Below are positions 4,770-53,769 of a DNA stretch of 64,000 nucleotides, in pieces. Both the position numbers and the translations under genes were made by a program. Source of the DNA: an uncultured Clostridia bacterium (lineage in GTDB: Bacteria; Bacillota; Clostridia; TANB77; CAG-508); assembly GCA_947628775.1 (NCBI GenBank), contig CANRBI010000001.1:4730-68729 (forward strand). Reading direction: 5' to 3'. The notes beneath the pieces were generated by a model. It was not told the origin of the DNA, made no database searches, and worked only from the letters and a program-made list of their open reading frames with translations. Each line of letters begins with the position of its first letter. Within the stretch, counting starts at the first letter, position 1.

Positions 4770-7700
4770 ATGAACAAAAAGAAGGACAAAGTAATAGCGG
4801 TATTTATACTTATAATTATGCTAATGAATATGTTATCAGGTATAATAAGTGCAGATTTTGAAACACAAGTAGAAGATACAAATGTATTTTTTGATGTATA
4901 TTTTGATAATGAAAGTCATAATACTGAAGCTAATATAAATGAACAAACAATGCTTACAGCTAACATCAAAATTGAAAATGCGGGAGTTATTGATAATGCT
5001 AAAATAAAATTTGATAATCCAAATTTTAAAATAAATGCTGATGATATTGACCAAAAATACATTAAAGAAGTGAACAAAGAAACAGACGAAATAACACTTA
5101 GTCAAATAACAACAGGAGAAATAAGTATCAAAATACCAATAATATTTGAAAAATACGGAAAAATAGATATATCAGAATTATCAAAAGCAACACCAATAAA
5201 ATTCACTGGAGACTATAAATGTCACTCAGAAGAAATAAGACAAATAGAAAAGAACATGGAAATTGTAGTAAATTGGGTATCATCACCAACAATAGAACTA
5301 CAAAGTGAATACACAAGTTATTTTTCAGACAATTCTCAAGTAATATTAGAACAAACAATAACTTCTACTGATAATGACAAAATGCCAAAACAAGCAGAAA
5401 GAATAGAAGTACAAATTCCAATATTAGATGAACAAAAACCACTACAAACAAAAGTATTAATAGATGATATGATAGCAAATGAAGAATACAAAATAGAAGA
5501 AAATAGCTTAATAATAGAAAACACAAACGACTTATGGGAGAAAAATCAAGACAAATATACCATAATATATACATATCCTGAAACAGTAGAACTAAAAGAA
5601 AGAGAAATACCACAAAACATACAATGTAAAACAAGATTTTATGGAAAATCAGAAATAGCAGAAACACAAAAAAATGAAACAGAAATAGTACAAGAAAAAG
5701 GACAAGCAATACAGACACAATATACATCTACAGAAAGTGTATATAAAGGATACATACAAAATGCTGCAGAAAGAAATACAACAATAGATGAAGTAACACA
5801 AATAAAATTTTTAAAAACTGAAAAAACAATAAAAGAAATAGAAATGGGAACAACAAGCCTTGTTGATGAAAATGAAAATCAGTATCCTATAGAAAATGTC
5901 CAATACGAAAAAACACTACTTAATAAAAAACAATTAAAATCAGTTTTAGGTGAAAATTTTGTACTAACATTCATAAATCAAGAAACAAATGAATTAATAG
6001 CAACAATTGATAGTAATACAAAAGAAGATGAACAAGGAAATATTACTATAGAATATGAAGACAATATTCATAAAATAAAAATACAAACAGAAAATGAAGT
6101 AAAAAATGAAGGTAAAATAACAATTGCAAATGTCAAAAATATAATAGGAAATACAGGATATACAAAAGAACAAATAAAACAATTCAAACAAATAAATAAT
6201 GAAGAAAAAATTAAAGAAATAGATGATACACAAACAGAAATAGCAGTACAAACAGAATTAAAAGATACTGAAACAAAAGCAGAATTAAAAATAAGTACAG
6301 AACAATTAATATCATCACAAACAAATGAAAATGTAGAAATAGAAGTAAATCTATTATCATATAACATAATGCATGAACTATATAAAAATCCTTTAATAGA
6401 AGTAAACTTACCAAAAGAAATACAAGATATAAATGTAAAATCAATAAAAAAGGTATATTCAGACGAATTATCAGTTCAAGATGCAGCATTAATAACAAAT
6501 GACCAAGGACAAAAAGTAATACAAATTCAAATGGCAGGAGAAGAAACACAATATAATAATTCAACATTTAAAGGAGCAACAATAAAAATATTATGTGATA
6601 TAGACTTGAAAAATAAAGAACAACTAGAAGAAGAATATAAACAAGAACAACAAAATCAATCATTAGAAGAAAATCAATTACAAGAACAAATTGAAAATGC
6701 AACTCAAGAAGAACAACCAGAAACACAAATATATACATCACAAATACAAGTAAAATGCACAAATGAAAATTCAAATCAACAATATGAAGAACAAAAAGAA
6801 GTAAAAATTTTAGCATTGGAAGAGCCAAAACAAGAAGTACAACAGCCAGTAGAAGAAAATATGACAGAAATTCAACAAACATCAACAACAGAAGAACAAG
6901 AAGTAGAAGAACATACAAATGAAAAAATAACAATGGAAGTACTACCAAAAACTAATGGTGAACAACTAAAAGATGGAGAAGATGTATATGAAGGGCAAAA
7001 TATATTCTATCAATTAAAAATAAAAAATGTATCAGAAAATGATATACAAAATGCAAAAATAGCAGTAACACATGAAAATGCAATATTCTATCATAATGTA
7101 AGAACAGAAGTTGAAGTAACAGATGAAGATACGGAATCTAATTATGAAGATATATATGAAGAAGATCCAGAACTAAAACAACTAGATATAGATATAGGAA
7201 CAATAAAAGCAGGAGAAACAATAGAAAAACAATATGAAATTTCTGTAGCAGAAGTAGAAGAAGAAGGACAACTTTCAGGAAATATAGTAGTTACAGCTAC
7301 TGATATGGAAAATTTAGAAGTAGAAACAAATAAAAATCCTATAAAACAAGCTGATCTAAAATTAGTAATGTCAATTAATAATTTTTCAAATAAAAGAGAA
7401 TATTATTCAGATCAATCATTAGAAATCCGACTTTCACTTACAAACTTTACAGATGAGCAAAAAGATGCAGATATATATATTCCATTACCAGAAGGAATAA
7501 GTTCTCAAGAAAGACAAGGAGAAGAAGATGAAAACTTTGAATATTTGGGCGTAGAAAATGGAATGTTACATGTAAAAATAAATAATATACGAGCAAAACA
7601 GGTAAGGAACACATCTGTAAAATTATGGATAGATGAATTTGAAGATGAATCAGATAAAAAACAATTTGAATTTTATGCAATTTTAAAACTAAATGAAGAA

Positions 7701-9206
7701 GTTAATTTAAGAACAAATTTTGAAATAATTGAAGTTGCTAGACTAAGAGAACAAGATGTACCTTTACAAGTTAACTTAATTTCGACACCAGATAATAATA
7801 CAGAAGTTTCAACAGGACAACAAATTACTTATACAGGTATAGTACGAAATTATGGATTACAAGATATTGAAAATATTGAAATAGCAATCCAAAAAACAGA
7901 AAACATTATAATAGATAGCATAACAATAGAAGGGGCTGTGGATCAAGAAACACAAGATTATGGAGAAAATTTCATAATATCAAAAATAGCAAAAAATTCA
8001 ACAGCAACAATTACAATACAAGCACATATAACAGAGGATGAACAAGCAGTAACGACACAAGAATTATATGATACATCACTTTATTTTAATGTAAAAACGG
8101 AAGAATATGAATTAATGTCTCCAGAAATAAATCATGAAATAGTTATAGATAATCAAGGGACACAAGATAATCCTTGGTATGGATATCCAGTAAGTAATGG
8201 TAAAATAAGTGGAACTGCATGGATAGATAGTAATAAAGACGGAATAAAAGATGAAGGAGAAGAACGAATACCAAACTTAGAAATTGTACTAATAAATGCA
8301 TTTGAAGATGAACAAGAAGTAATGTATAGTACAATAACAGATGAACAAGGAAATTATGAATTCTCAGATTTAATAGAAGGAAACTACATTATAGGATTTA
8401 ATTATGATAATGTTAATTACCAAATGACAGAATATCAAAAACAAGGAGTATCAGAAAGACAAAACTCAGATGTAATCACAGAATATTCAAGTGATGGTAA
8501 ATTATATGCAATTACAGATATAATAAATGTATCAGAAAAATATGTAACAAATATAGATGCAGGATTTATACAAAAAGATTTATTTGACTTAAGTATGAAA
8601 AAATATATATCAAGAGTAACAATAAGAGATAATAAAAATAATGTTACAACAACAAATTATCAAAATACACAATTTACAAAACAAGAAATACCATCAAAAA
8701 CACTAGAAGGTGCAGTTGTTTTAATAGATTATGACATAGTAATAACAAATGAAGGAGAACTTCCAGGATTTATTGATGATATAACTGATTATATCCCAGC
8801 AGATTTACAATTCCAATCATCAGTAAATAAAGATTGGTATCTTGGAACAGATGGAAATTTACATACTAATAGTTTATCACAAGAAATAATACAACCAGGA
8901 GAAACAAAAACAATAACATTAGTATTAACAAAACAAATGACAAAAACAAATGTAGGAATGATTTCAAATACTGCAGAAATTAGTGCAGCACACAATGAAA
9001 GAAATTCTCAAGACAAAGATTCTATACTAGGAAATAGACAAGATGGAGAAGATGATATAAGTAATGCACAACTATTAGTTTCTGTAAAAACAGGATTAGT
9101 ACAAAGTGTAAATATAACAGTTATTATAACAGTATTACTTGCTATAGCAATGATAATATATATAATTAGAGGAAAGGAGGATGATGAAAGTGAAGATAAG
9201 ACATAA
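4770..9206 (+). CDS. Giant cell-surface protein A1 (~1478 aa). Signal peptide, acidic low-complexity linkers, DUF11/Cna-B (SdrD-B-like) repeat domains, and a C-terminal sorting signal LVSVKTG + TM + RGKEDDESEDKT.
   Basis: Probable start ATG 4770, 11 nt after RBS aggagg. The track ORF begins at GTG 4758, which lies inside the RBS. The protein starts with the signal peptide MNKKKDKVIAVFILIIMLMNMLSG. A Cna-B/SdrD-B-like block reads GTAWIDSNKDGIKDEGEE...TDEQGNYEFSDLIEGNYIIGF. A DUF11-like C-terminal module ends ...NTAEISAAHNERNSQDKDS...LLVSVKTG, followed by a hydrophobic stretch and a basic/acidic tail. It is paralogous to the 44505..49445 product. Confidence 0.8.
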   Translation: MNKKKDKVIAVFILIIMLMNMLSGIISADFETQVEDTNVFFDVYFDNESHNTEANINEQTMLTANIKIENAGVIDNAKIKFDNPNFKINADDIDQKYIKEVNKETDEITLSQITTGEISIKIPIIFEKYGKIDISELSKATPIKFTGDYKCHSEEIRQIEKNMEIVVNWVSSPTIELQSEYTSYFSDNSQVILEQTITSTDNDKMPKQAERIEVQIPILDEQKPLQTKVLIDDMIANEEYKIEENSLIIENTNDLWEKNQDKYTIIYTYPETVELKEREIPQNIQCKTRFYGKSEIAETQKNETEIVQEKGQAIQTQYTSTESVYKGYIQNAAERNTTIDEVTQIKFLKTEKTIKEIEMGTTSLVDENENQYPIENVQYEKTLLNKKQLKSVLGENFVLTFINQETNELIATIDSNTKEDEQGNITIEYEDNIHKIKIQTENEVKNEGKITIANVKNIIGNTGYTKEQIKQFKQINNEEKIKEIDDTQTEIAVQTELKDTETKAELKISTEQLISSQTNENVEIEVNLLSYNIMHELYKNPLIEVNLPKEIQDINVKSIKKVYSDELSVQDAALITNDQGQKVIQIQMAGEETQYNNSTFKGATIKILCDIDLKNKEQLEEEYKQEQQNQSLEENQLQEQIENATQEEQPETQIYTSQIQVKCTNENSNQQYEEQKEVKILALEEPKQEVQQPVEENMTEIQQTSTTEEQEVEEHTNEKITMEVLPKTNGEQLKDGEDVYEGQNIFYQLKIKNVSENDIQNAKIAVTHENAIFYHNVRTEVEVTDEDTESNYEDIYEEDPELKQLDIDIGTIKAGETIEKQYEISVAEVEEEGQLSGNIVVTATDMENLEVETNKNPIKQADLKLVMSINNFSNKREYYSDQSLEIRLSLTNFTDEQKDADIYIPLPEGISSQERQGEEDENFEYLGVENGMLHVKINNIRAKQVRNTSVKLWIDEFEDESDKKQFEFYAILKLNEEVNLRTNFEIIEVARLREQDVPLQVNLISTPDNNTEVSTGQQITYTGIVRNYGLQDIENIEIAIQKTENIIIDSITIEGAVDQETQDYGENFIISKIAKNSTATITIQAHITEDEQAVTTQELYDTSLYFNVKTEEYELMSPEINHEIVIDNQGTQDNPWYGYPVSNGKISGTAWIDSNKDGIKDEGEERIPNLEIVLINAFEDEQEVMYSTITDEQGNYEFSDLIEGNYIIGFNYDNVNYQMTEYQKQGVSERQNSDVITEYSSDGKLYAITDIINVSEKYVTNIDAGFIQKDLFDLSMKKYISRVTIRDNKNNVTTTNYQNTQFTKQEIPSKTLEGAVVLIDYDIVITNEGELPGFIDDITDYIPADLQFQSSVNKDWYLGTDGNLHTNSLSQEIIQPGETKTITLVLTKQMTKTNVGMISNTAEISAAHNERNSQDKDSILGNRQDGEDDISNAQLLVSVKTGLVQSVNITVIITVLLAIAMIIYIIRGKEDDESEDKT

Positions 9207-12200
9207 TAAAATAATAAAATTGCTATTTATAACAATCTTCATAATCCTTCTTATAAATAAACCATCAACAGCTTTAACTAGTAAATCTACTAATTTTGAC
9301 GAAATGAGACAAGAATTACTAAGTTCTGATGGATTTGATATAGATCCAAAAAGCTTTTTTAAAGATATGGAATATTCTATAGATACTCATGTTAAAAAAG
9401 GAGCAGCTTGTATACATGACCATCAAAATACACCTTTGACTAAAGATAGAAAAACCAGCATTTATTCAATTTATGCTGTTGTAGATTTGAATTTTAAACA
9501 GAGCACTTACTCAAAACCAGGAACATTTGTCAGGTATACAAAGAGTTCTCAAAAAACATATACTATGCAAGAAGCGAAAAAAGGAAAAAAAATAACCCCA
9601 ATAGATAAAGCACCATATAAAGATGTTTATCCACAAATTTCGGGTGAAGGACAGGCAAAGACAGCTATATCAGCTTTAGGTTATGCTGCTTATTATGCTA
9701 GAAATGAAAATGAAAATACTGATGATGCTAATAAGTCAAGATTTAGAATGATGTATTTCTTATCAATTAATGCACTATCCAGAAATTCAGACATATTACC
9801 AGTTAAGTTAAATACAGGTAATGGAGGAAGTTATTCTAGAGAAGCGGCAGCACATGGAGATGCAATTGTAGAGATACTTAATTATGCTAATTCTGCTGTA
9901 ACATATAAATTTGATATAAATAAATCAAATAGAAATTACAAAGCTACAAACACACGTCCTGCAGATGAAACAAAAGCATATGTTACATATAATGAAGAAA
10001 ATGATGTTACATATGTTGGACCATACTTTTTCAATTATACATATGAATGGAAACAAAATAAATTAAAAATTGTAGATGTAAAAGCTTCATTAGATAGTTA
10101 TCAAGGAAAGATATTTTATACCCTAAAAAGAGATGGAAATAATTTAAAAAGTTTTGAAGATAAAGATAGTTTCCCTACAGGTTCAGATAATCCGTTTTAT
10201 ATTGCAATTAAAGGCAAACTAAAAGAAAAATTAGATGTGACATTTGTTAATGAATATGATGTTTGTAAGGCAAGAATCATATTTGGTGCAAGTAAAACCG
10301 ATGAAACTGTTTCTCAAGAACGATGTATATTTAAGACTAAAATGACTACTTTAAATGATGCAGTAACAGTTTCTATGGAAGGTGGAACAGATACTAAACT
10401 ACATAAAATAGGATATGATCCTAAGACTGGAGAACAAACAAATCTTGAAGGAGTATTGTTTATATTCCAAAACATGGACACACGTAAGTATATAGCAAAA
10501 GATGGTGGAGAGACTTCTAGAAAAAGTGAAGCATATAAAATACCAACAGATCCTGAAGGTATGATTACATTACCAGATTTAGAAGGAAATTATTGTGCAT
10601 ATGAAGTAGATAACCCAGATAAAAAATATGACGGAGCTTGGAGTGAAACAGAAGGAATAAAATTAGAAATTGGAACAACAACTACAATTGTAAACACACC
10701 AGGTGCGATAGAATTACAATTGCAAAAAGTAGATGGTGACACAGGTGATCCTATAGAAGGAGTAGTATTTAAAATAAAGGAAAATACAAAAGGCTGGTAT
10801 ACAGGAAATATAGATGAACCATTTTCAAATAATGAAGATGATGCAAGTACATATATAACAGATATTAATGGTATAACAAAAGTGCCAAATCTACCATCAG
10901 GAGATTATAGCGCAGTTGAAATAAGTACAAAAGAACCATATGAAATAATAAAAGGTTCAATACCTTTAGATATAGCAAAAAAACCAAATGTAATTCAAAA
11001 CTTTAAAAACGACGAACCACAACCACCACCAGAAGAAGTACCAGATAGAGGAGAAGGACTTGTAAAAGTATTTTCTAATACAAATAACATGGCCCCAATG
11101 GGAGGAATTCAATTTGGAATAAAAAATTGGGAACCAGATAATCCAGAATACAAAATAGAACCACGAGAACCATTAAGAAGTGATAGCAAATATTGGAGTA
11201 ATGTACCTCATACAGGACGAAGACCTACAGAAAAAAAAGACGAAAATGGAAATACAATCTATGAATCATATACATATTATGAATGGGAATTTACAGAAGA
11301 ATTATTATATCAATCAGATCATAAAGAATATGAAATTAAACTAGACAACTACAAATATTATATGAAATCGAAAGAAACATATGTTGCAACAGGTACATCT
11401 CAAACAAATGGAACTGTGCAACTATCTGGAGACATAAGACCAGGTACATATGACTTATATGAATATGGATCATTAAATTCATATGTTATTGTACAACAGA
11501 AATGTGTACAATCAGGATATCGAGTAGGTGATTCATTAGATGTAGAAAATCCTAGAACATATGTAGATATAGAAGGAAATGTATGGGTAGATTATCAAGA
11601 AGGAAAATCATCTACAAGAGATAATAAATTTGCATCAAATGAAGGATTAAATGGAGTAAAAGTAACATTAAAACGAGGAAATAGCGAAATATGCAGTGTA
11701 GCATCAGGATTTGATAGTAATGGAGCATCTCAATCTAGAGGACACTATAAATTCTGGGGAGATATAAATAACTTAAGAATAGAAGTAGATCATTTGGATG
11801 AATATTCAATAGAATTCTCATATAATGGTATTGTATATCAAAGTATAAGTGCTACATCAATAGAACCAGGAGGAACAGCAAAAGCCAAAGAAAACGATAG
11901 TGAAAGAACACAGTTTAATGCTGACTTTTCAACAGTAACAGCAGGAACACAAACAAGTAATGGACAATCAACAAACTTATCAAGAAATAATGGAAAAACT
12001 ATTTTATATAATTCAACAGGTCATAGTAGTAGAGTAGTATACAAAGCTACACAAGATGCAATAGGAACCTTATCAGATGAAGCCTATGCAGATGATCAAT
12101 ATCATATGAAAGCATATACAACAGAAGCTGGACTAAACTTAGGATCACCTAATCAATATGGAGGATATCCATATGACCCAGCTAAAAATTCAATAACAGA

Positions 12201-25135: not shown

Positions 25136-28100
25136 ATGAAGACAAAAACAATTAAAATAATATCATTAATTTTAATTATTTTAATGGTCATATCTATGGC
25201 TTTTTATGTAGTTGACGCAGAAGATCAAAATGTTACTCTTAGTCTCACACCAAAGCCTAAAATAGATATAGTATTAGCTAAAGCAAAAACATCACTTGAT
25301 TTAGGAAATTTTGAAAAAGATATAAAATCAAAACTTTCTAATGAAGGTATAGACACAGATGATGTTAAAGTAAGTGCGATAGAAGCTAATCAAGAAGTTT
25401 TAACAACATCTTTTGATTGGGATCAAGATTTATCAAAAGATATAGGAGATATTAAAATTACTAATGGTGGACGAGATGTTGAGATGATAGGCAATTATTC
25501 AGAAGAAGGAAAAAATGCAATGTGGATAATTCCGGACAAGCAAAACCAAGATCAAAAATTCACTTTTGATTATAATATTGACTTTGGAGATAGTTTCAAT
25601 GCAGCTGGAATGTTATTAAAAGTAAAAGACAATGGAAATACATTGACAGGATATATGTTAAGTTTTAATAAATCATCAAAAAGTTGGTATTCAGGTAGTG
25701 GTAATTATAATGGAGCAATTTGGGAATTTTCATATACCAAAAAAGCAAATACATATAATGTAGAAACAAAAATACTAAAAAAAGGATTGGATATTTTAAC
25801 AGAAGGTACACTTACAGTTGAAACTACTGATACACAAATTAAGGTTTCTGGGGGAGGATTAAGTGAAACAGCAATATATGATATAGAAAAAGAATTTGGA
25901 AATGGATATGGATTTTTCTCAGACCATTATAGTCATGGTTGTGATCAATATGGTAGTTTCAAATTAACTAATATTAATTTACAAACAGAATCAGTAAAAA
26001 CATTTAATGAAGTACTAAGAAGTGCAGACTGGAGAGATGGAGCTTATAAATTCTTGGTAAATGTTGATGAAAAAGAAAATGAAGAATTAGCAAATGCATC
26101 TACATATGGAGAGTTAGCAACAAGATTAATGAATGAAGGTATATATTTTGTAGCATGGGGAAATTCTAAAAACGAAACTCAATTTGAAAACTTAATAAAG
26201 ACAAATGATGATAAGGGTAAGTTTATAACAAATGCAGGATATACATCTAATATTGAACAAACTGCAAAATATATAAAAAGTGTATTAGGAACTTTACAGT
26301 CATCAAATTATTTAATTGTAAATGAACCGATAAAAATAGGAGTAGAACCACCAGGAATATTAACAGGTACTATAGATGAACAATGGACAACTGGTAAATG
26401 GATGGTAAAGCATGATTATGAATATTATGAAAATAATATGGGACAATTTGCGCAATCAAATATGTATACAGATGATTTTACGACAACATTTAATAAAGTA
26501 GGAAAATATGAAATAACATATAAAAATGTTCCAATAAATCCAACTGAAATATATGTACATAGAAGACCTATAGCATTATTTGATATGGCTATAAATGAAA
26601 CCAATGTAACACTAACAGACAAATCATATGATTTGGATAAAGAATCACAAGATAATGGAATAAAAGAAAAACAATGGAAATGGAAAGAACCTTCAGAAAC
26701 AAGTTGGCATGAAGGACAATTAACTACAATAGATAAAACAAAGGAATATATAGTACAATTAAGAGTAAAAGATTTTCAAGAAACATGGAGCACACCATGT
26801 AATAAATATATTAATTTAAAATTAGATAATATAAAACCAATAGCAACATTTGATTTTAAAAACAGTGAAATTACACCATATGACAAATTAGAAATAACAG
26901 ATAATTCATATGATCCAGCAGGCAAGACGATTACAAATAGAAAATGGGAAGTATTTGATAAAGATAATGTATCAAAATATAATAGTACAACACAAAAGGA
27001 AACTTATACAGATTTAACACCAGGACAATATAAAATGAGTTTAACAGTAACAAATGAATCTGGTACACAATCAGAAACATTTTCAAGATATTTTACAATT
27101 GTAGCAGATTCAATTGCACCAGAATTTGTAGCCACTCCAATAGAATCAGATTGGACAAAAGAAGTAACAGTAAATTTAGAGTTTAATGACCCAGGACTAA
27201 GTGGTTTTAAAAACTATAAATATGAAATAACAACATCACAAGATAAACCATCACAATATTCTAATCAAAGTACAAATGCAAATGATCAAATAACTTTAGA
27301 TGGAACGGGAATAAAGTATATACATATCATAACTGAAGATATAGCAGGAAATATAAGTGCAAACAGAATTATAGGATCATATAAATTGGATAATCAACCG
27401 CCAGAAATAACAGTTACAGCAGATTTCCAAAATGCAGTAGTAGATAAATTACAAGTTAATATAAAGACAGATGATCCGCATTCAGGAATGAAAAGTCTTA
27501 AATTAGATGGAAATGATTTAAAAAGTATTAATGATGATACAGTAGAGATACTAAAAAATGGAACATATACAATTACAGCAGAAGACCAACTAGGTAATAC
27601 AAGTACAAAACAAATTCAAGTAAACAATATAAATTATGAATGTAATGCAGGATTAGGACATCCAAACTACAGTTCAAGTCTTGATAAATGTCCTATATGC
27701 AAACTTTTAGAAGGAGTTACAGTAACAAATCATGAAGCTGTATATGATAAAACTGAAAAATCTCTAACATATGATAATCCAAATGAAGCTGAAATAGTAG
27801 AATATTATAATGGTTCAACACAAAAACCAATAGAAGAAGGTTCATATACATATGTACTAAAAATAAAATATAATGGAACTGAATATAACACAGGAATATC
27901 AGGAACTTATACAATACATCCAAAACCAATAACAATTACATCAATAACTGCAGAAGATAGACAATATAATAAAACAGATGTAGTTAATATTTCAGGAGGA
28001 CAACTAGTAGGAGTAGAACAAGGAGATGAAGTAGGATTTGAATTACCACAAACAGGACAATCAGTAGATGTAGAAGGTGAACAAATCATACCAGTGGTAG

Positions 28101-43199: not shown

Positions 43200-43566
43200 G
43201 TAATAAAAAAAGACATATATATAATAAATCATCTTTTACACCTTCTTGATACAAAAAAATCAAAACACAAATAATAATAATATCATCTATATATAGCTTA
43301 ATACCAAACATTTCAAATATAGGTTGTTCGATATCATTAAAAGCATCAAAATTAAAATTTAAAGGGCCAAATGAAAATAAATTAGAAATCGTATTACTAT
43401 TTTTAGTAATATGATTTTTTTCTTCTTTAGAATTATCTGTATTTTTAGTATTATTGTTATTAAAAATAGGATTAGTATTTTTAATAATTTTATCACCGTG
43501 AGTGATAAAATTACGTGGAACATGTGAAAAATAGCGGTATCTGGAAAATGGAAAATAAAAAGCCAT
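43189..43566 (-). CDS. Hypothetical N-rich small protein with a C-terminal hydrophobic segment (uncertain gene).
   Basis: 125-aa ORF overlapping the minC 3' end by 11 nt, with low complexity. Could be spurious. Confidence 0.25.
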   Translation of the reverse strand: MAFYFPFSRYRYFSHVPRNFITHGDKIIKNTNPIFNNNNTKNTDNSKEEKNHITKNSNTISNLFSFGPLNFNFDAFNDIEQPIFEMFGIKLYIDDIIIICVLIFLYQEGVKDDLLYICLFLLLIL

Positions 43567-43569
43567 AAT

Positions 43570-44406: not shown

Positions 44407-44435
44407 TTGAAAAAACTTTAAATTTCATGTATAAT
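44407..44435 (+). promoter_or_regulatory. Sigma-A-type promoter (TTGAAA-17-TATAAT) for the A2-B2 surface-protein pair.
   Basis: ttgaaa at 44407-44412, a 17-nt spacer, tataat at 44430-44435, about 70 nt upstream of ATG 44505. RBS taggagg. Confidence 0.55.
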
Positions 44436-44504: not shown

Positions 44505-47500
44505 ATGAAAGAGAGAATTACAAGAGCAATAATAGCTAGCTTGTTAATTTTAGCAATGACAATGTCTAACTTTATATTGCTAGGAATCACTGCAGTAACA
44601 TATGCAGTTGATAGTATTACTCAAGATAAAACGACTAATAATAAAAATGTAGAATTCATGGCATATTTTAAAGATTCAAATCAAAACATAATATCTAGTC
44701 GAGAAATAAAAATGAATGAAACTGATTTAAAACTTTATTTTAAAATAGCTGTAAAACGTGAAGGTTATTTCAATGGACAAGTAGAACTTTCTAACAGTAA
44801 TTTTAAAATAAATGAAACAAACTTGGAAGAAAAAGGTATTTCAAAAATAGAAGGGAATACAATATACTTAAATCAAATTAATGCAGGAGAAGAAAAAGAA
44901 TATGAAATAGGAATAGAACTATTTAAAGATGATATGTATGATTTAAGTATGTTACAAAAAGATTCACAAGTTTCTATTAGTGGTACCTATAAAGATAGCA
45001 CTGAAAAAGATATAAGCATAGAAGCATCTAGAACTGTAACTCTTAAATTAATGGAACCATATGCAGATAATGAACAATCACCAGTATCATTAGAACAAAA
45101 AGTAATAACAAATAAAGTATATGATTCAAATGGTAGAAAAGTTAGAGTTCTACAAGTGCAGATTGATGCAAAATTATTAGATAATAATTATCCTATAAAA
45201 AGTGCTAAACTAGAATTAACAGCACCAAAGGTAAATAATAAATATCCTGAAATAGTTGAACTTGTAACACCAGATGAATTAATGACAAATGGTAAAAAAC
45301 TAAGTGAAGACCAATATAAATATGATAAAGGAACAGGATTACTTACAGCCACAGTAGAAAATACTGAAACAGATGGAAAAGTAGTATGGACTAAATCAGG
45401 TACAGATACATATGTTGTTACATATATATTTAGTGAAGAAGAATCTATTCAAGATCAAAGATTAATAGCAAGTGTAAAATATGAATTATATAATGATAGT
45501 AAAACATCATATACAAAAAATATAGAAACACCTATGATGAGTGGTGAACTAGATTCTACAATAGAAGTAAAAACAGATAGTACTGATGAAATATATAAAG
45601 GAAAATTATATGCAGGACTTGAAAAAGAATATTCACAAAATATTCATATTCAAGTAAATACATATGGAATAGCAGAATCAATATATGTAGCAGAAGATAT
45701 TAGCCAAATGAGATTACAAACATATACAAAACAAATAAAATTAAATAAGGATAATATGATATCAATACTAGGAGATGATGGAAAAGTTACAATCTTAAAT
45801 AAAGCAACAAGTCAAGTGATATCAGAAATTACTAAAGATAGTCAAGCAAATGAACAAGGAAATATAACAATTGATATACCAGCAAATATACCAGAAATTG
45901 CTATTCAAACAACAAAACCAACAAGTGCTGGAGTATTAGATATAACATCAATCAGAGTTATAGCTGCAAATGCTATAAATACTGTAAAAAGCATAAATGA
46001 ATTACCATATGTAATTAAAGGAAATTATATGATTGGTAATATAGAAAATGCAATTAAAGAAGTATCATCAAATATAGAATTAAAAGAAACACAAACTTCA
46101 GCAAGACTAGAAGTTAATAAAGAAGAACTTTCAACAATGACAACAAATAAAAATGTAGAAATGAAAGTTATATTAGAAACAGCAAATGAAAGTCAAGAAT
46201 TATACAAAGCACCAACAATACGTGTTACACTACCAGATAAAATACAAGATATACAAATTAACGCCATTAATTTAATAAATGAAGATGAATTACAAATAGC
46301 ATCAAAACAATTAATTGGAAAAACAATAGAAATACAACTACAAAATGAACAAACAAAATACAAAGACATAGCAGTAGAAGGCGCAGAAATTCTTATATCA
46401 GCAGATTTAACACTTGACAAAAAAGAAACAAACTCAACAGAACAAATCACATTAACTTATACAAACCAAAAAGCAGTAAACTATAAAGAAGGAGCAGATA
46501 TAGGAACAGATTCTAAACCAATAAATATAGTTTCATATGCAGGAATTGTTACAGTAAATGAAATTTCAGATTATGGAATTCAAACAATAAACAATGACGG
46601 AACAAAACAAGGAAAACTAGAATTAGGAAAAGAAGCTAAAACTACAACTATAAAATCTGAAATATATAACAACCAAGATGCAAAAATAAATAATGTAAGA
46701 ATATTAGGAACATTCCCAACACAAGGAGCATCTGATGAAAATAATATTGAAACAAGTGTAAGTAAAATAACATTAGAAGGACCAGTAGTATCTCATGAAA
46801 ATGAAAATATAATTGCAGAAATTCTAGCAAATCAAAAAGCATATTATACAGAAAATGAAAATGCAGATACAGACCTAGAAAATCAAGCAAATCAATGGGA
46901 AGAAACAATAAAAGATCCATCAAAAGTAAAAAAATACATGATAGTGATAGATAGTTTAGATATAAAAGATGAAATATCTTTTGAATATAATTTAACAGTA
47001 CCTGCAAATTTGGAATATAACCAAACTGCAAAAACAGGATATGACATATACTACACTATAGACACAGCAAATGTAGAACAAGTTGTAAATACAGATAAAT
47101 TAACTTTAGAAACAGGTGTAGGACCAATAGTAAATGCAGAATTACAAGCGACAGTTGGAGGACAAGAAATAACAGAAGTTAAAAAGGGAGAATTTATACA
47201 TTATACAATAACTGCAAGAAATACAGGTTCAGAACCAGTAGAAAATGTAAAACTTATAGGAGAAGTACCAGAGGGTACAGTATATATTGAAGAAGTTATA
47301 TATTCAAATGATTCTGATACTGAAAGCGGAGGAACATTTGACCTAAATAATCGTTTTAGTGAAGACTTAAATAAAACTCAAGTAGAGTTTACAGTAGAAA
47401 AATTAGATGTAGGGGAGCAAGTAGTTAAAACATATGATGTAAAGGTAAAAGATGTAACATCTAAAACAGCAGAAGCAAAAGTGAATATACAGTATGGAGA

Positions 47501-49445
47501 AGTAAAAAAACAATCTAATGTAGTTAAATTAGATTTAGAAGATTCAGAAATGGAAATAAATATAAAAGCAGCAAGTGATAATACTGTACTAAACTCAGGA
47601 TATACAGCTTACTACATAATACAAGTATTAAATAATAGTGATAAAGTAATGAAAAATACAAAAGTAGTTTTACAAGCTGAAAATTTAAAAGTAAGAGAAC
47701 TAGCATACTTTAATGATAAAGATGAAGCTATTGCAGTACAAGATTCGAATGAGATAACAGTAGATGAAATTCAACCAAATAAAAGTATTGATATTACAGC
47801 AACTATAGAAGCTTTACAATTTGTAGATTCTGAATCAAAACAAGCAACTTTACAAGCAAATGCAATTAGTGATGATATTACATATCACTCTAATCAACAA
47901 AAAATAACAGCTGTTGCACCGCTTTTACAATTAGAACACTCAGCAGAACGAGAAGGAGAATATGTAAAGGCTGGAGAACAATTAGCATATAAAATAAAAG
48001 TAACAAATAAAGGCGAAAATATACTAAATGAAGTGACAATAGAAGACAATATAACTTTATATGAAAAACTTGATTCTATTGCTGTAAATGAAACTCAATT
48101 AAAAGAAGATGAATACACAATTGAAAAAGAACTTAATGCACAGGGACAAACTATAACAATAAAAACAGATTTACAACCACAAGAAAGTAAAGAATATACT
48201 GTAATAACAACAATAGATTCTGTAGTAGAAAATAAGGAAGTAATAGAATTATCAAATAAAGCAAAAGTATATTCATCTGGAGTAGAAATTAAACAAAGTG
48301 AATTAAAACATTTGTTAGAACCAGATACATCAGGAAATGAAGACCCTTCTAATCCAAACAATGGTAATGGTTTAAATGGTCAAGATGGAAATGGTCAAAA
48401 CGGAAATGAATCTGGAAGTAATTCTAATAAAATAATTTCAGGAATAGCATGGCTAGATAAAAATGAAAACAATGAAAAAGATACATCAGATTCAACAGTA
48501 CCTAATATGACAGTAAAACTATTAGACACAACTACAAACCAATTACTAAAAGATAGTAAAGGACAAGTTATTGAAACAAAAACAAATGAAACAGGATTTT
48601 ACAGCTTATCAAATATACCACAAGGTAGATATATGGTAATATTTGAATATGACACATCAAAATATGGATTAGTAGAATATCAAAAAGATGGTGTTTCTGA
48701 AGAAAACAACTCAAATGTTATAGCAAAACAAATTGAAATAAATGGAGCAAATAAACAAGTAGCAAGTACAGAGCTTATAGAATTATCAGACAAAAATGTA
48801 TCTAATATAAATATAGGACTTAAAGAACTAAAAATATATGACATGAGATTAGATAAATATGTTAGCAGAATAGTAGTAAATAATTCAAAAGGAGCATCAA
48901 CAAACGAATATGGAGAATCTACACTTGCAAAAGCAGAAATACCTGCAAAATTACTAAGTCAATCAAATGTAGTAGTAGAATACAAAATAAAAGTAACAAA
49001 TGAAGGAGAAATCCCTGGATATATCAAAAAGATAGATGACAAAATAGCTACAGATTACAAATTCAGTTCAGAAATGAATAAAGATTGGTATCAATCAGGA
49101 GATACATTATCAAATGTAAGTTTAGCTAATACAAGAATAGAACCAGGAGAAAGTAAAGAAATCACATTAATACTTACAAAACAAATGACTGAAAACAATA
49201 CAGGACTTATAAATAACACAGCAGAAATTGCAGAAGATTATAATGAACAAGGAATAGTTGATGCAGATTCAGTAGCTGGTAATAAAGATATTAAAGAAGA
49301 CGATTTTGGATCAGCAGATGTAATATTAGGTATAAAAACAGGTGAAATAATCATGACAATAGCAATAATTATTACATCAATAGTAGTATTAGCAGCAGGA
49401 GCATTTATAATAGCAAAAATTGTTCTAAAAAAGAGAGTAATATAG
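44505..49445 (+). CDS. Giant cell-surface protein A2 (1646 aa), paralog of A1. Signal peptide, DUF11/Cna-B repeat domains, and the sorting signal ILGIKTG + TM + KKRVI.
   Basis: N-terminal MKERITRAIIASLLILAMTMSNFILLGITAVTYA. The N-terminal domain is homologous to A1 (NSNFKINETN... vs NPNFKINADD...). The Cna-B/SdrD-B-like block reads GIAWLDKNENNEKD...NETGFYSLSNIPQGRYMVIFEYD. The C-terminus reads ...NTAEIAEDYNEQGIVDADS...ADVILGIKTGEIIMTIAIIITSIVVLAAGAFIIAKIVLKKRVI. Confidence 0.8.
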   Translation: MKERITRAIIASLLILAMTMSNFILLGITAVTYAVDSITQDKTTNNKNVEFMAYFKDSNQNIISSREIKMNETDLKLYFKIAVKREGYFNGQVELSNSNFKINETNLEEKGISKIEGNTIYLNQINAGEEKEYEIGIELFKDDMYDLSMLQKDSQVSISGTYKDSTEKDISIEASRTVTLKLMEPYADNEQSPVSLEQKVITNKVYDSNGRKVRVLQVQIDAKLLDNNYPIKSAKLELTAPKVNNKYPEIVELVTPDELMTNGKKLSEDQYKYDKGTGLLTATVENTETDGKVVWTKSGTDTYVVTYIFSEEESIQDQRLIASVKYELYNDSKTSYTKNIETPMMSGELDSTIEVKTDSTDEIYKGKLYAGLEKEYSQNIHIQVNTYGIAESIYVAEDISQMRLQTYTKQIKLNKDNMISILGDDGKVTILNKATSQVISEITKDSQANEQGNITIDIPANIPEIAIQTTKPTSAGVLDITSIRVIAANAINTVKSINELPYVIKGNYMIGNIENAIKEVSSNIELKETQTSARLEVNKEELSTMTTNKNVEMKVILETANESQELYKAPTIRVTLPDKIQDIQINAINLINEDELQIASKQLIGKTIEIQLQNEQTKYKDIAVEGAEILISADLTLDKKETNSTEQITLTYTNQKAVNYKEGADIGTDSKPINIVSYAGIVTVNEISDYGIQTINNDGTKQGKLELGKEAKTTTIKSEIYNNQDAKINNVRILGTFPTQGASDENNIETSVSKITLEGPVVSHENENIIAEILANQKAYYTENENADTDLENQANQWEETIKDPSKVKKYMIVIDSLDIKDEISFEYNLTVPANLEYNQTAKTGYDIYYTIDTANVEQVVNTDKLTLETGVGPIVNAELQATVGGQEITEVKKGEFIHYTITARNTGSEPVENVKLIGEVPEGTVYIEEVIYSNDSDTESGGTFDLNNRFSEDLNKTQVEFTVEKLDVGEQVVKTYDVKVKDVTSKTAEAKVNIQYGEVKKQSNVVKLDLEDSEMEINIKAASDNTVLNSGYTAYYIIQVLNNSDKVMKNTKVVLQAENLKVRELAYFNDKDEAIAVQDSNEITVDEIQPNKSIDITATIEALQFVDSESKQATLQANAISDDITYHSNQQKITAVAPLLQLEHSAEREGEYVKAGEQLAYKIKVTNKGENILNEVTIEDNITLYEKLDSIAVNETQLKEDEYTIEKELNAQGQTITIKTDLQPQESKEYTVITTIDSVVENKEVIELSNKAKVYSSGVEIKQSELKHLLEPDTSGNEDPSNPNNGNGLNGQDGNGQNGNESGSNSNKIISGIAWLDKNENNEKDTSDSTVPNMTVKLLDTTTNQLLKDSKGQVIETKTNETGFYSLSNIPQGRYMVIFEYDTSKYGLVEYQKDGVSEENNSNVIAKQIEINGANKQVASTELIELSDKNVSNINIGLKELKIYDMRLDKYVSRIVVNNSKGASTNEYGESTLAKAEIPAKLLSQSNVVVEYKIKVTNEGEIPGYIKKIDDKIATDYKFSSEMNKDWYQSGDTLSNVSLANTRIEPGESKEITLILTKQMTENNTGLINNTAEIAEDYNEQGIVDADSVAGNKDIKEDDFGSADVILGIKTGEIIMTIAIIITSIVVLAAGAFIIAKIVLKKRVI

Positions 49446-49467
49446 AAGAAAGGAGGGAGAATTTACA

Positions 49468-52400
49468 ATGAATAATTTAAAGAAATACTTACTAATGATA
49501 ATAAGTTTTGTATTTATATTTATGGTTTGCTTATTTTCAACAAATACATCACAAGCAGCTACATTATCAGTTGATGAAATAAAAAAAGGTTCAAATGTAG
49601 GAGCAACGGTAAGATTAAATTTGAATACATTGAATTCTAGAAACGATTTGTATTGTGTTCAACATCATCAATTTCTAGATGCAAGTAATATATATACTTA
49701 TAGAGTTGCAAAATATGTAGAAATAGTAGGAAATGATGCAAAATCAGGTGGAACAACAGTTTCAAATAAAGATAATGGTACATTGGCATATATTATTAGT
49801 AAAAAAGAAGGATATAGATATGGATCTTCAACTGGACAATATGCTATGTGGCAACATATAAATACATGGTTTAGTAGTGTTGGAGGTAAATTTGGACTAA
49901 ATTGGATGTGGACTTTTAATGATGTAGGAGAAAATAGCTATATAAGAGAAGGAAGAGAATATGCAAATAGAATTGGAGATACAACAGTAACAGAAGTAAA
50001 AGATGAAACTAAAAAAGAAGATGTAAAAGTAACAGCATACAAAAATTCAAAAGGTGTACCATGTCTTAGAGTAGGGCCATTTAAATACAAATTTCCTGGA
50101 AATATACAAGAAATGAGTGTAAAAGATCAAGATGGAAATAAAATAACTTCTATAGCATATAGTATATATGAAGGAAACGAAGAGAAATTTGTTGAATTAA
50201 ATAAAATACCAAGTGACAAAAACTTCTATATTTCAGTAAAGATAGATCCTAATGTTACTAAAATTACTAATATATCAGGAAAAGTAAAATTTGAAGATAC
50301 AGTATTAACAGCAAGATTATGGTTCTTACAATCAAGCGGACTTCAACATTTACTAATAGTAGACCCTGGAACGAAAACTAATGAAGGAAACTTAAATTTC
50401 AATTTTAACTATGATATAGACTTAACTGGTGATATAGGAATTGAAAAAGTAGATGAAGACAATCATGATTTGAAATTACCAGGTGTTGGATTTATTATCC
50501 AATCTAAAGAAACAGGAAAATACATAAAAAGAGAAGGCGGAACAATAAAATATGTAGATACTAGGGAAGAAGCAGAAGTTATACCAACAGATGAAACAAC
50601 TGGAAAAATATATGTAGAAGATGTATTAGTAGGAACATACTTATTCTATGAGGTAAGTAACCCAAATTATGGATATGAACTTCTTAAAGACCCAATAGAA
50701 GTAAAAACAAGTTCTCAAACAGGTAAATATACTTTAATTACAAATAGGCAAATATATGTAAAACTATCTGGATATGTATGGATAGATAAACAAAGTGAAA
50801 AACTAACAGTTAGAAATGACTTATATAGGAATGATACTAAAGATGATGAAGATGAATTATTTGAAGGTGTAAAAGTTAGACTAAAAGATACATCAGGAAA
50901 TATCCTTCAAGAAAAAGTAACAGATAGTAATGGAGCATATTTATTTGAAGATGTGTTAATTGATGAATTAGGAAATTACTATATTGAATTTGAATATGAT
51001 GGATTAACATATGAGAATGTAAATATAAACTTAAGTGCAGAAAATGGTTCAAAAGCATCTGAAGGTAACGAAAGAGAAAAATTTAATAACAAATTTGCAC
51101 GAGTAGATGCAGATACAAGAGACACAGTTAGTGTAAAAGATTCTGCAGGTACAGAAACCTATAAAATAAAATATGAAATACAGGAAGGCGGACATAGTGC
51201 AAAAATAATTAAAAATCAATGTTTCATAACAGCAAATACAACAGATGCAGGTCTTACAATAACATATGAAAGAGGAAAAGGAATTAAAGAATTAAAAGGA
51301 TTTAACTTAGGCGTTTATGAAAGAGAACAAACAGATGTGGCTCTAATGCAAGATGTTGACAATGTAAAAGTAGGAGTTAAAGGATATAATCACATTTATA
51401 AATATGGATCAAGGATAGGAGAAAACAATGAACCAGTTGAAGATGCATGGAATGTAGGTGTAAAATTCAGAAGTGAATATGGTTCACATAAATATCTAAG
51501 ACCAGTATATAAAGCAGATGCTAATTATCATGATGAAACAGATGAAAGTAAAGACTTAAGAATGTTCTTGACATATAAAATAGGTTTGAAAAATCAATCA
51601 ATTTTTTATGAAGAATCAACAAACCAATCAACTGCTAATGAAGAATCAGAAATACAATCAACTTCTGATGGAGAATCAAAAATAAAATCAACAAAGATTA
51701 ATTCAATTGTAGATTACTATGATAAGAGATATAGATTTGTTGATGCAGGTACAGGTTTTGATGATAAAACAGGAACAATAACAGGAAGTTTACCAACTAA
51801 AGTAAATGATATAACTATACCAGAAAACGAATATTTATCAGCAGAAGTTGATACATCATCTGTATTAATTAAAAATAAAACTGAATATGTATATGTACAA
51901 TTTGAATTATCAAGACAAAATATCTTAGACTTGATAAATGATAAAGAAGCTGGAGCTGAACCTTCAGAATATCTAGAAAATATAGCAGAAATTACATCTT
52001 ATACATCATATGCAGATAAACAAGCAACACAACTTTATGGTTCAGTAGATAATGATGCAGTAGCTGGAAATGCAACAGCTGGAGATATAAACACATATGA
52101 AGATGATACAGATACAGCACCAAATGTTGGACTTACAGTTGCAAATGCAAGACAAACAACAGGTATGATATTTGAAGATAAAGAAGAACAACATTACTTA
52201 GATGAACAAAATATACGTCAAGGTAATGGAAAATATGATGAAGGTGAAAGCAAAGTAGGAAATGTCCAAGTTCAATTAATTGATCTTGACACAGGAAAAG
52301 TAGCTGAAGTTTATGATGAAAAAGCTGTAGATGAAGCAACAGGCAAATTAGGTAAATTTACAGGTGATTTATGTACAACAATAACAGGAGATGATGGTTC

Positions 52401-53769
52401 ATACAGCTTCACAGGATACTTACCAGGTAAATATGTATTGAAATTTACATGGGGTGAATCTGATGATGGAAGGGTAATCTACAAAACTGTAGATGGCTCA
52501 AAAGTAAATTATGAATATGCAGTACAAAACTATAAAGCAACAGTATTTGAAGAAAGTAGATATAATCAAGAAAAAGAAAACCACCGCTATTATCAAACAA
52601 ATACAGAAATTCCTCAAACACACGCAATAGATGACTGGGAAACAAGATTAAATATTGACAAAGAACTAAACAAACACGGAACTGAAGAAGATAATGGATA
52701 TAACCACGCTACAGAAATTAAGACAAAAGAAATGACATCTACAACACCAGACTTAGAATTTGGAATAGAGTACACAGATACAGATTTAGACAATATTACA
52801 ATTGTAGATGATACTCAAGTAACATTCCAAGTTAAAAATCTAGACTTTGGTATCATAAGAAGAGCAATACCAAATATAGAATTTAGAAAAAGAATAGCTC
52901 ACATGACAGCAAAACTAGATGATGGTTCAACACTAATAGATGCAGATGTAGATGAACAAGGAAATTTAACAGGACAAACAAACTACTTAACATATCTAGC
53001 ACCAACAGCAAATTCTAATGGTACATTAAGAGCAGAAATTGATACAGAAATAACACAATCATTATTTGTAGAACTAAAATATGAATTTGCTATAACAAAT
53101 ACTGGTGAAGCAGATTTTGCATCAGAAGGATATTACAACCATGGTAGTGAATACTACTCATCAAGAGGAGAAACAGGAGAAGAGCAAAAAGAACAAGATG
53201 TAGTAACAATATCACCAAGTAAAATAGTAGATTATCTAGATTCAAGAACAATTTATAGAGTAGATAATGAAATAAATAAACAGTATGGATGGCAACCTGC
53301 AACAGTTGAAGATTTAAAGGCAAATGGAGATATACTAGATGTTACTGAAGAAGGAGAAGTAAGTTGGAATGATAAGGCAACTCCATATTATACAGTATGT
53401 CTAGAAGATGCTAAAATTAAACCTAAATTTACGGTAGGAACAGAAACTAGAGATGCAGAAAGAAAAAATATATATCTTGTAGCTGAAAAAACTCTATCAA
53501 CAAATGATGATACACACTACTTGAACCAAGTAGAAATAGTATTAATCAACAAAACATTTGGTAGTAGAATAGAAACAACACCAGGAGATTATACATATGA
53601 AACAGAAAGAGTTAATTTCCAAATGGATGATGCAAGGGCAGAAGAAATCGTAATCATGCCAAGTACTGGTGATAACAGAGATTATATAGTAATAGCATTA
53701 AGTTTTGTAGGAATACTAGCAGTATTTGGAGTAGGTGTATACTTCATCAAAAAAAGAGTCAACAAATAG
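49468..53769 (+). CDS. Giant cell-surface adhesin B2 (1433 aa), paralog of B1. Signal peptide, an N-terminal putative internal-thioester (TED-like) domain, Cna-B-type domains, and the sorting signal MPSTG + TM + KKRVNK.
   Basis: RBS aaaggaggg lies 8 nt before ATG 49468. The N-terminus has LYCVQHHQ (Cys codon 49654-56) and STGQYAMWQ (Gln codon 49837-39), resembling TED Cys/Gln motifs ([YF]C[IVL][DEQ] ... TQxA[IV]W). The Cna-B-like block reads GDGSYSFTGYLPGKYVLKFTWGE. The C-terminus reads EIVIMPSTGDNRDYIVIALSFVGILAVFGVGVYFIKKRVNK. Confidence 0.8.
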   Translation: MNNLKKYLLMIISFVFIFMVCLFSTNTSQAATLSVDEIKKGSNVGATVRLNLNTLNSRNDLYCVQHHQFLDASNIYTYRVAKYVEIVGNDAKSGGTTVSNKDNGTLAYIISKKEGYRYGSSTGQYAMWQHINTWFSSVGGKFGLNWMWTFNDVGENSYIREGREYANRIGDTTVTEVKDETKKEDVKVTAYKNSKGVPCLRVGPFKYKFPGNIQEMSVKDQDGNKITSIAYSIYEGNEEKFVELNKIPSDKNFYISVKIDPNVTKITNISGKVKFEDTVLTARLWFLQSSGLQHLLIVDPGTKTNEGNLNFNFNYDIDLTGDIGIEKVDEDNHDLKLPGVGFIIQSKETGKYIKREGGTIKYVDTREEAEVIPTDETTGKIYVEDVLVGTYLFYEVSNPNYGYELLKDPIEVKTSSQTGKYTLITNRQIYVKLSGYVWIDKQSEKLTVRNDLYRNDTKDDEDELFEGVKVRLKDTSGNILQEKVTDSNGAYLFEDVLIDELGNYYIEFEYDGLTYENVNINLSAENGSKASEGNEREKFNNKFARVDADTRDTVSVKDSAGTETYKIKYEIQEGGHSAKIIKNQCFITANTTDAGLTITYERGKGIKELKGFNLGVYEREQTDVALMQDVDNVKVGVKGYNHIYKYGSRIGENNEPVEDAWNVGVKFRSEYGSHKYLRPVYKADANYHDETDESKDLRMFLTYKIGLKNQSIFYEESTNQSTANEESEIQSTSDGESKIKSTKINSIVDYYDKRYRFVDAGTGFDDKTGTITGSLPTKVNDITIPENEYLSAEVDTSSVLIKNKTEYVYVQFELSRQNILDLINDKEAGAEPSEYLENIAEITSYTSYADKQATQLYGSVDNDAVAGNATAGDINTYEDDTDTAPNVGLTVANARQTTGMIFEDKEEQHYLDEQNIRQGNGKYDEGESKVGNVQVQLIDLDTGKVAEVYDEKAVDEATGKLGKFTGDLCTTITGDDGSYSFTGYLPGKYVLKFTWGESDDGRVIYKTVDGSKVNYEYAVQNYKATVFEESRYNQEKENHRYYQTNTEIPQTHAIDDWETRLNIDKELNKHGTEEDNGYNHATEIKTKEMTSTTPDLEFGIEYTDTDLDNITIVDDTQVTFQVKNLDFGIIRRAIPNIEFRKRIAHMTAKLDDGSTLIDADVDEQGNLTGQTNYLTYLAPTANSNGTLRAEIDTEITQSLFVELKYEFAITNTGEADFASEGYYNHGSEYYSSRGETGEEQKEQDVVTISPSKIVDYLDSRTIYRVDNEINKQYGWQPATVEDLKANGDILDVTEEGEVSWNDKATPYYTVCLEDAKIKPKFTVGTETRDAERKNIYLVAEKTLSTNDDTHYLNQVEIVLINKTFGSRIETTPGDYTYETERVNFQMDDARAEEIVIMPSTGDNRDYIVIALSFVGILAVFGVGVYFIKKRVNK

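Follow-up and report, generated by a model that had tools for sequence, protein, structure and literature searches.

A putative stalk-and-adhesin gene module at a conserved chromosomal site of uncultured gut Clostridia

Introduction

TIE adhesins, CLIPPER stalk proteins and the xPxTG sorting signals of clostridia are all known already. Class II thioester domains (TEDs) are recognized by a [YFL]C-phi-zeta motif, a TQxx-phi-W helix, an inserted beta-sandwich and a Gln residue on a long twisted hairpin, and only the Cys and Gln are universally conserved among TEDs (Miller et al., PMC6194298). The domain DUF11 has been renamed CLIPPER and is a CnaA-like, isopeptide-bonded stalk domain of fibrillar adhesins (PMC12617251). 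Substrates of C. difficile SrtB carry the signal (S/P)PxTG-DN (PMC4155245), and the class B sortase Spy0129 from S. pyogenes acts on two signals, the EVPTG of a backbone pilin and the VPPTG of the thioester adhesin Cpa (PMC3019223). Here we describe two tandem pairs of giant surface-protein genes, each composed of a gene A followed by a gene B, and a solo gene related to A, all of which reside in a 64,000-nucleotide (nt) stretch of DNA from an uncultured Clostridia bacterium (contig CANRBI010000001.1), hereafter called the window.

In our assessment, it is reasonably probable that the two coupled genes of the A-B locus act as a module for the joint display of a stalk protein (A) and a thioester adhesin (B), both anchored via sortase-type signals by a sortase encoded elsewhere. 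The relatives compared below are known from metagenomes or metagenome-assembled genomes (MAGs), and the search for a sortase covered the window, its flanks and 95 related loci.

Results

Five giant genes and their junctions

The window contains five giant open reading frames (ORFs), and our ORF calls agree with the positions listed in an initial annotation of this DNA that had been made from the sequence alone:

A1: 4770..9206, + strand, 1478 amino acids (aa), paralogue of A2; alternative GTG start at 4758
B1: 9181..14796, + strand, 1871 aa, paralogue of B2; start within the end of A1
Solo protein: 25136..30457 (alternative start 25127), + strand, 1773 aa
A2, predicted stalk protein: 44505..49445, + strand, 1646 aa
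B2, predicted TIE-type adhesin: 49468..53769, + strand, 1433 aa

While the five genes stand as annotated, the share of the window that they occupy, given earlier as about 37%, is 38.5% when measured (24,618 nt).

Sequence comparisons bear out the view that A1 and A2, like B1 and B2, are homologous along their lengths and much diverged. A1 and A2 are 28-29% identical in two segments that span most of both proteins (E 3e-66), and B1 and B2 are 26% identical over 1248 columns (E 1e-71). The N-terminal domains of B1 and B2 are also homologous, with the Cys and Gln columns aligned (hhalign probability 99.9%, E 1e-35). The solo protein shares with A only the C-terminal DUF11 module (31% identity over 96 aa, E 2e-7), as had been annotated, and the sole domain common to A and B is of the SdrD_B type.

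Both gene junctions were found as first described. The A1 and B1 ORFs overlap by 26 nt, with GGAGG at 9176-9180 and candidate B1 starts at ATG 9181 and GTG 9190, such that the B1 start and the GGAGG are embedded in the last codons of A1. The A2 stop and the B2 start are 22 nt apart, and this spacer carries its own ribosome-binding site (RBS):

B2 RBS: 49450..49458, + strand, AAAGGAGGG, inside the 22-nt A2/B2 spacer

Past its transmembrane (TM) segment, A1 has only R-G-K and then the acidic run EDDESEDKT, and these codons (9160-9206) double as the region of the B1 RBS and start. Because the A1/B1 overlap shares these codons, the 'charged tail' of A1 appears to be constrained.

Conservation of the A-B locus

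One genome per species was scanned with a 12-sequence alignment of B (a 30-sequence alignment was too diverse), which yielded 78 loci (L008-L085). All come from uncultured gut Clostridia, for example Clostridium sp. CAG:343, CAG:389 and 27_14, and MAGs of human, mouse and rabbit gut. Protein collections hold 110 homologues of B2 and more than 420 of A2, every one from a metagenome or MAG. Gene A lies directly upstream of B in all 78 loci found via B, wherever the contig allows, and loci found via A, which were chosen without reference to B, have a B-type gene directly downstream in three of three cases. B homologues with just 24-30% identity likewise reside in A-B-A'-B' arrays. The commonest distance from A stop to B start in the 78 relatives is 20-21 nt. 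The A-to-B pairing proposed in the initial annotation is conserved, being kept in every related locus examined, so that it withstands the condition for rejection that the annotation itself had named.

The surroundings of the pair are conserved as well. In 65 of the 78 species-level loci, the genes for MreC, MreD, PBP2 and MinC are followed by two small divergent ORFs and then by A-B. Downstream there is either a series encoding SpoIIE, a WG-repeat protein, ACPS and TatD, as in the window, or a second A'-B' set. The locus types comprise ABAB (26), AB plus a fusion (19), BF (1, truncated upstream), ABA (5, at a contig end) and AB (22, many cut by a contig end), and a second tandem A'-B' set is present in at least 46 relatives. 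The minC-A-B-spoIIE arrangement also occurs on single contigs of 1.54 and 1.62 Mb, from which we conclude that the genomes are small and the locus is chromosomal. The window itself encodes proteins of a spore-forming Firmicute, including YpeB, a SleB/CwlJ-like hydrolase, SpoIIE, MecA and the products of mreBCD-PBP2-minC (Pfam, ORFs of at least 150 aa).

First-position pairs of the relatives score a mean of 882 bits against A2 versus 295 against A1, and 785 bits against B2 versus 313 against B1. Because of the higher A2/B2 scores, these pairs are considered clear A2/B2 orthologues. A1-B1 of the window belongs with the more divergent second-pair class. Direct orthology with the tandem second pairs is weakly suggested for A only, where second-position A' proteins score higher against A1 than against A2 in 16 of 24 cases, and B' gives no clear assignment. 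Both pair types are present across the clade, which agrees with the earlier judgement that the duplication is old.

MreC, PBP2, MinC, SpoIIE and TatD of the relatives are 60-73% identical to the window proteins, whereas the A2 and B2 orthologues are approximately 35% identical. By this measure, the A-B pair diverges about twice as far as its neighbours while residing at a fixed site. Gene order across these genomes shows that the A-B module belongs to the core chromosome of an uncultured clade of gut Clostridia, which form spores and have small genomes, and in which the module is usually tandem-duplicated.

The two small ORFs preceding A2 in the window are N-rich and follow minC, which is not succeeded here by minD or minE (window 42588-44160):

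Small ORF sm125: 43189-43566, - strand, 125 aa, divergent from A2
Small ORF sm196: 43570-44160, - strand, 196 aa, divergent from A2

Neither has a Pfam or NCBIfam match. Both are syntenic with A-B in most of the 78 genomes, with approximately 35% identity among relatives, and it is uncertain whether they are part of the A-B module. In two relatives, ORFs whose N-termini resemble type IV pilins, GITLIALVITIIVLLILAG, are located between the small divergent ORFs and A (L010 2920-4620; L060 2226-3668 and 4122-4805).

The N-terminal head of protein B

B2 is composed of a signal peptide, a predicted class II thioester domain, SpaA/CnaB, SdrD_B and a long conserved stalk, with the SpaA (CnaB) and SdrD_B assignments for B coming from Pfam. 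The N-terminal domain had earlier been described as Cys-containing, and can now be identified from its predicted fold and its motifs as a class II thioester domain:

B2 class II thioester domain: 49555..50427, + strand, approximately residues 30-320, with Cys63 in LYCVQ, GQYAMW on a helix and Gln293 on a long beta-hairpin
B1 N-terminal thioester-type domain: 9298..10440, + strand, approximately residues 40-420, with Cys77 in AACIH and Gln379

Residues 1-440 of B2 were modelled with 55 homologues, giving a predicted local distance difference test (pLDDT) value of 92.4, and Foldseek aligned the head model with the B. anthracis TIE protein 6FWV over 384 columns. C63 (LYCVQ) and Q293 (LQHLL) are invariant across the 55 sequences. 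The GQYAMW sequence, for which the family consensus is VQNAIW, lies on helix 122-137, the beta-sandwich is present, and Q293 is placed between long strands 265-288 and 295-318. The model accordingly displays the upper lobe, inserted beta-sandwich and long hairpin of the class II TED fold, and the Gln motif of B2 fits phi-Q-zeta-phi-phi. In B1, the residue before Cys77 is Ala rather than Y/F/L, and C77 and Q379 are each retained in 95% of 41 B'-class sequences.

The head is missed both by the Pfam TED model and by a sequence search of the PDB with the B profile, which returned the CnaB domain only. Because these searches miss a head whose modelled fold and motif match, B constitutes a divergent TIE adhesin family that is recognized by fold and motif and lies beyond existing sequence models. 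Some B homologues have other domains in place of the head, with coverage of only 78% of the query.

Protein A and the solo protein

Protein A contains DUF11/CLIPPER and SdrD_B domains that exceed the Pfam thresholds. The DUF11 scores are 35.5 bits for A1, 51.8 for A2 and 29.4 for the solo protein, compared with a cutoff of 24.6, and TIGR01451 scores 40.1 bits for A2. A full-length NCBIfam scan of the giant proteins gave almost no matches, and the anchor model matched isolated tails only.

The layout of A2 comprises a signal peptide, approximately six Ig-like beta-sandwich domains, CLIPPER/DUF11, SdrD_B and a terminal CLIPPER domain. Although no Pfam family covers the first 850 aa of A, the predicted model of the N-terminal part of A2 is all-beta and resembles pilins and MSCRAMMs. 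On the basis of these matches and models, A is a rigid all-beta stalk protein in which domains of the CnaA/CLIPPER, SdrD_B and Ig-like types are combined. Protein A also has a conserved (D/G)KYP segment, which differs from the canonical pilin motif, although no systematic search for pilin motifs was made.

In the solo protein, Pfam identifies four YDG domains, PKD and DUF11, and there is also an acidic repeat region. Its C-terminus has the A-type CLIPPER module followed by SVKTG (nt 30347-30361), a TM segment and KRKR, and no B gene comes after it.

Sorting signals and the search for a sortase

All five proteins were said in the initial annotation to have a signal peptide and a C-terminal motif followed by a TM segment and a charged tail, and this pattern is confirmed. 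By inspection, each N-terminus is K/R-rich, then hydrophobic, then AxA-like. Among the 85 stop-to-stop segments of at least 100 aa in the window, these five are the only ones with xxxTG, a hydrophobic stretch and basic residues. The signals of the paired proteins are as follows:

A1 C-terminal signal: 9081..9206, + strand, SVKTG (residues 1438-1442), TM, RGK and an acidic tail that overlaps the B1 RBS and start
A2 C-terminal signal: 49329..49445, + strand, GIKTG (residues 1609-1613), TM and KIVLKKRVI
B1 sorting signal: 14683..14796, + strand, NPPTG (residues 1835-1839), TM and KKKVLK
B2 sorting signal: 53656..53769, + strand, MPSTG (residues 1397-1401), DN, TM and KKRVNK

When isolated tails were scanned with anchor models, B2 (18.3 bits) and the solo protein (17.5 bits) exceeded the 15.9-bit cutoff of TIGR01167 (LPXTG_anchor), and B1 was just under it (15.3 bits). 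The Pfam model Gram_pos_anchor responded to B2 only, with 17.1 bits against a cutoff of 20.

Motifs were then counted in complete ORFs from the 78 species-level genomes. The A motif, S[IVL][KR]TG, terminates 98 of 101 complete A ORFs, and the T and G are present in 98 of 98. Position 1 is S in 82 of these and G in 12, position 2 is I, V or L in 96 and Pro once, and position 3 is R or K in 81. All of the 87 complete B ORFs carry the B motif, TPxTG, and none lacks the T or the G; position 1 is T in 76 and position 2 is P in 73, and (D/E/A)N usually comes next after the G. The two classes of motif stay strictly apart. Because the modules that precede them are homologous (...PGN-x-(E/D)DD-x-A-(D/E)-x-V-I-(I/L)...) and yet the motifs stay distinct, the difference between the motifs has been maintained, which suggests that it matters.

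As originally reported, there is no sortase in the window: Pfam detected no Sortase domain in the other window ORFs of at least 150 aa, and no credible ORF with TLxTC was found. No sortase was found in approximately 10 kb past either end of the window, nor in the loci of distant homologues. It is also correct that no sortase, signal peptidase or regulator adjoins the pairs. A need for two sortase classes is not supported, because a single class B sortase, Spy0129, takes both EVPTG and VPPTG (PMC3019223), and two types of motif therefore need not mean two sortases.

Natural fusions of A' and B'

In 20 loci, the second position is occupied by a single ORF of 2550-3180 aa (e.g. L014 14210-23281, L020, L027, L036, L044, L053, L069, L082). 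The first ~1400 residues align to A through its motif and TM segment, and the last ~1100-1300 align to B. All 20 junctions have x[IV]xTG, a hydrophobic helix of about 20 residues, a short K-rich loop, a second helix with an AxA-like site and the Cys-bearing B' head. The T and G of the internal motif are retained in 20 of 20, and the C-termini have motifs resembling (T/V)PPTG.

At most fusion junctions a strong RBS is missing, and several lack an in-frame start at a suitable position, which indicates that these ORFs are true fusions and that B' is made only within the fusion where the junction has neither. The fusions are present in independent assemblies from several studies. Their predicted topology is self-consistent, with A' outside, a membrane hairpin and B' outside, and the 26-nt overlap of A1 and B1 is the unfused neighbour of this state. 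We take the fusions as strong evidence for joint action of the two proteins in equal quantities.

The order of elements in these polypeptides is signal peptide, A', internal x[IV]xTG, TM segment, basic loop, second TM segment (the B' signal peptide), B' and terminal TPxTG. One interpretation, which we regard as doubtful, is that A-B forms an obligate two-component surface fibre and that the fusions are polyproteins. Sortase would cut at the internal sorting signal and signal peptidase at the internal signal peptide, such that the TM hairpin would be released and the ectodomains would end up side by side or covalently joined. Our literature search returned no description of internal sorting signals or of polyprotein sortase substrates derived from one polypeptide.

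Other features of the window

Candidate transcription signals flank the A2-B2 pair:

A2 upstream promoter candidate: 44407..44435, + strand, TTGAAA-17-TATAAT, sigma-70-like, 11 of 12 positions, the top match of the region
Strong terminator-like hairpin: 53788..53827, + strand, 16-bp stem then a T-run, directly 3' of B2

Promoter-like matches are no more numerous than expected by chance in this AT-rich DNA, and the promoter at 44407..44435 is therefore listed as a candidate only. The G+C content of the window is approximately 27%.

A1-B1 is located approximately 35 kb upstream of A2-B2, between a VanW-domain gene and murF. These neighbours are a divergent VanW-domain/PG_binding_4 gene (2725-4302, - strand) and murF (15221-16630, + strand). 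Both pairs in the window thus adjoin cell-wall genes, which is possibly a coincidence. A large ORF just beyond the 3' end of the window was suspected to encode a sixth adhesin, and proved to encode RpoB.

At 18598-20617 (+ strand), with 17684-18564, two overlapping ORFs make up a TraG/VirD4-type coupling protein of a type IV secretion system (Pfam T4SS-DNA_transf, E 2e-81). Its N-terminal TM part is in a different frame, and two orphan ORFs without a family match lie alongside. This region looks like the decayed remnant of a conjugative element.

Discussion

The domain identities, the conserved Cys and Gln, the fixed gene order, the coupling of the genes and their fusion, the partition of motifs, the core synteny and the fast divergence are all direct results of this analysis. 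We favour the interpretation that A and B are co-displayed on the cell surface as a module. A and B would be produced from a bicistronic, translationally coupled unit and delivered to the surface together, where both would be exported by Sec, lose their signal peptides and be retained in the membrane through the C-terminal TM segment. A sortase encoded elsewhere would then cut between T and G and link both proteins to the wall, recognizing a B tail of the form T-P-x-T-G-(D/E)-N, TM and KKK and an A tail of the form S-[IVL]-[KR]-T-G, TM and basic residues. The thioester head of B would bind its target covalently, with the host, mucus or another microbe as candidates. Sortase cleavage, thioester formation and the target are the parts of this model that we infer.

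Several results weigh against anchoring by a sortase or against a thioester head. No sortase was detected with the TLxTC pattern within 10 kb in 95 related loci (1.97 Mb in total). The A1 and A2 tails match neither TIGR01167 nor a Pfam anchor model, their motif has no Pro, and in A1 just R-G-K stands ahead of the acidic run. NVQTG, which the A-type motif resembles, is not cleaved by C. difficile SrtB in vitro (PMC4155245), and there is a class II TED adhesin, the TIE protein of pLS20, whose function does not depend on a sortase (PMC8092201). The Pfam TED model does not match B1 or B2 at E <= 0.01, and the thioester bonds, Cys63-Gln293 in B2 and Cys77-Gln379 in B1, are predicted.

Some of these results would be expected if A and B were not sortase substrates but were tethered in the membrane by the C-terminal TM helix, or also by the TM hairpin in the fusions, with xxxTG serving a structural role at the end of the last beta-strand. 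No sortase was seen in the window, its flanks or the 95 loci, no linker that could span the wall separates the motif from the final folded domain, the anchor hidden Markov models do not recognize the A tails, and the pLS20 protein sets a precedent. We nevertheless judge this explanation quite improbable, in that T and G are invariant while adjacent positions vary, B has the P-x-T-G-(D/E)-N pattern of clostridial sortase substrates, B2 and the solo protein pass TIGR01167, and the motif is kept in 20 of 20 fusions, where a plain TM helix would suffice. An additional possibility is that A and B are covalently joined as the subunits of a single fibre, in effect a minimal two-subunit pilus, in which a sortase would link the Thr of one motif to a Lys of the other protein and place B as the tip on an A stalk, with the remaining motif anchoring the dimer. 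The fixed gene order, the tight coupling and the natural fusions, which would deliver both substrates 1:1 at one site, are in accord with this possibility, as are the never-mixing motif classes on homologous C-terminal modules and the fact that the best structural matches of both A and B are pilins. S. pyogenes offers a further precedent (PMC3019223): there, a single class B sortase couples Cpa, the TED tip adhesin with VPPTG, to a backbone pilin with EVPTG. Such a fibre is nonetheless unlikely: no pilus-type sortase adjoins A-B in any of the 95 loci, and subunits of 1400-1900 aa are far above the known size of pilins. Pilus operons normally carry their own sortase. No recognizable Lys of a YPKN-type pilin motif was identified, although the search for it was not systematic, and the solo protein has an A-type motif without a B partner. 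The unpaired use of the motif by this protein suggests that the A motif is a general anchoring signal.

The initial annotation also proposed that A2-B2 is an accessory insertion into the mre-min cluster. The absence of minD and minE after minC and the frameshifted TraG/VirD4 gene elsewhere in the window would be compatible with horizontal acquisition. However, 65 of 78 species-level genomes have the order minC-sm125-sm196-A-B-spoIIE, and hence the same site including both small ORFs, and so do near-complete contigs of 1.6 Mb. The G+C fraction of the pair, 0.25-0.31, equals that of the rest of the window, flanking repeats and an integrase are not present, and the orthologues diverge in step with the clade. 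Acquisition of this kind is therefore very improbable, and that part of the annotation should be abandoned.

An obligate, clade-wide A-to-B module at a fixed core locus, a strict partition of two sorting motifs, and single-ORF versions in which an internal sorting signal is followed by a signal peptide appear not to have been described before. The five proteins of the window, encoded by approximately 25 kb, would account for roughly 1.5% of a 1.5-1.6 Mb genome. Their fixed site, combined with a divergence about twice that of the neighbours, is the signature of a key, selected structure for contact with a host or partner. Protein B would represent a family of covalent (thioester) adhesins that the Pfam TED model misses. 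The two sharply separated motifs offer direct test material for clostridial sortases, and the fusions are ready-made for testing sortase processing of internal sites and the paired assembly of surface proteins.

Comparison with known systems

Protein B has in common with TIE proteins (B. anthracis BaTIE 6FWV, E. faecium EfmTIE86 6FWY and S. aureus SaTIE) a signal peptide, a predicted class II TED head, a CnaB-type stalk and an xPxTG signal with a TM segment and basic tail. It is 2-3 times longer, however, its motif is TPxTG rather than LPxTG, and its gene is always directly downstream of the partner A and is sometimes fused to it. With respect to its signal, B also resembles the (S/P)PxTG substrates of C. 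difficile SrtB, which share the clostridial pattern xPxTG-(D)(N/S) and in C. difficile are cut between T and G, but position 1 of the B motif is T, I or V, not S or P. The A-type motif resembles that of the collagen-binding C. difficile protein CbpA (NVQTG), in that both are Pro-less and xVxTG-like; NVQTG remained uncleaved in vitro.

The FCT pilus of S. pyogenes (Cpa tip, T-antigen backbone, Spy0129 and SipA) likewise has a thioester adhesin beside a stalk gene and distinct motifs that are not LPxTG, namely VPPTG and EVPTG, compared with TPxTG and S[IV][KR]TG in A-B. Unlike in that system, the A-B locus and its surroundings contain neither a sortase nor SipA, A is a 1500-aa multi-domain protein instead of a polymerising pilin of approximately 300 aa, and the gene order is stalk and then tip. 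Protein A and the solo protein share with the CLIPPER/DUF11 fibrillar adhesins (Costa et al. 2025, PMC12617251) the CnaA-like stalks of the DUF11/CLIPPER and CLIPPER_2 types within a long surface protein. Protein A differs from these adhesins in its N-terminal 850 aa, which lie outside Pfam families, in its Pro-less xIxTG signal and in having an obligate partner that is a TED adhesin.

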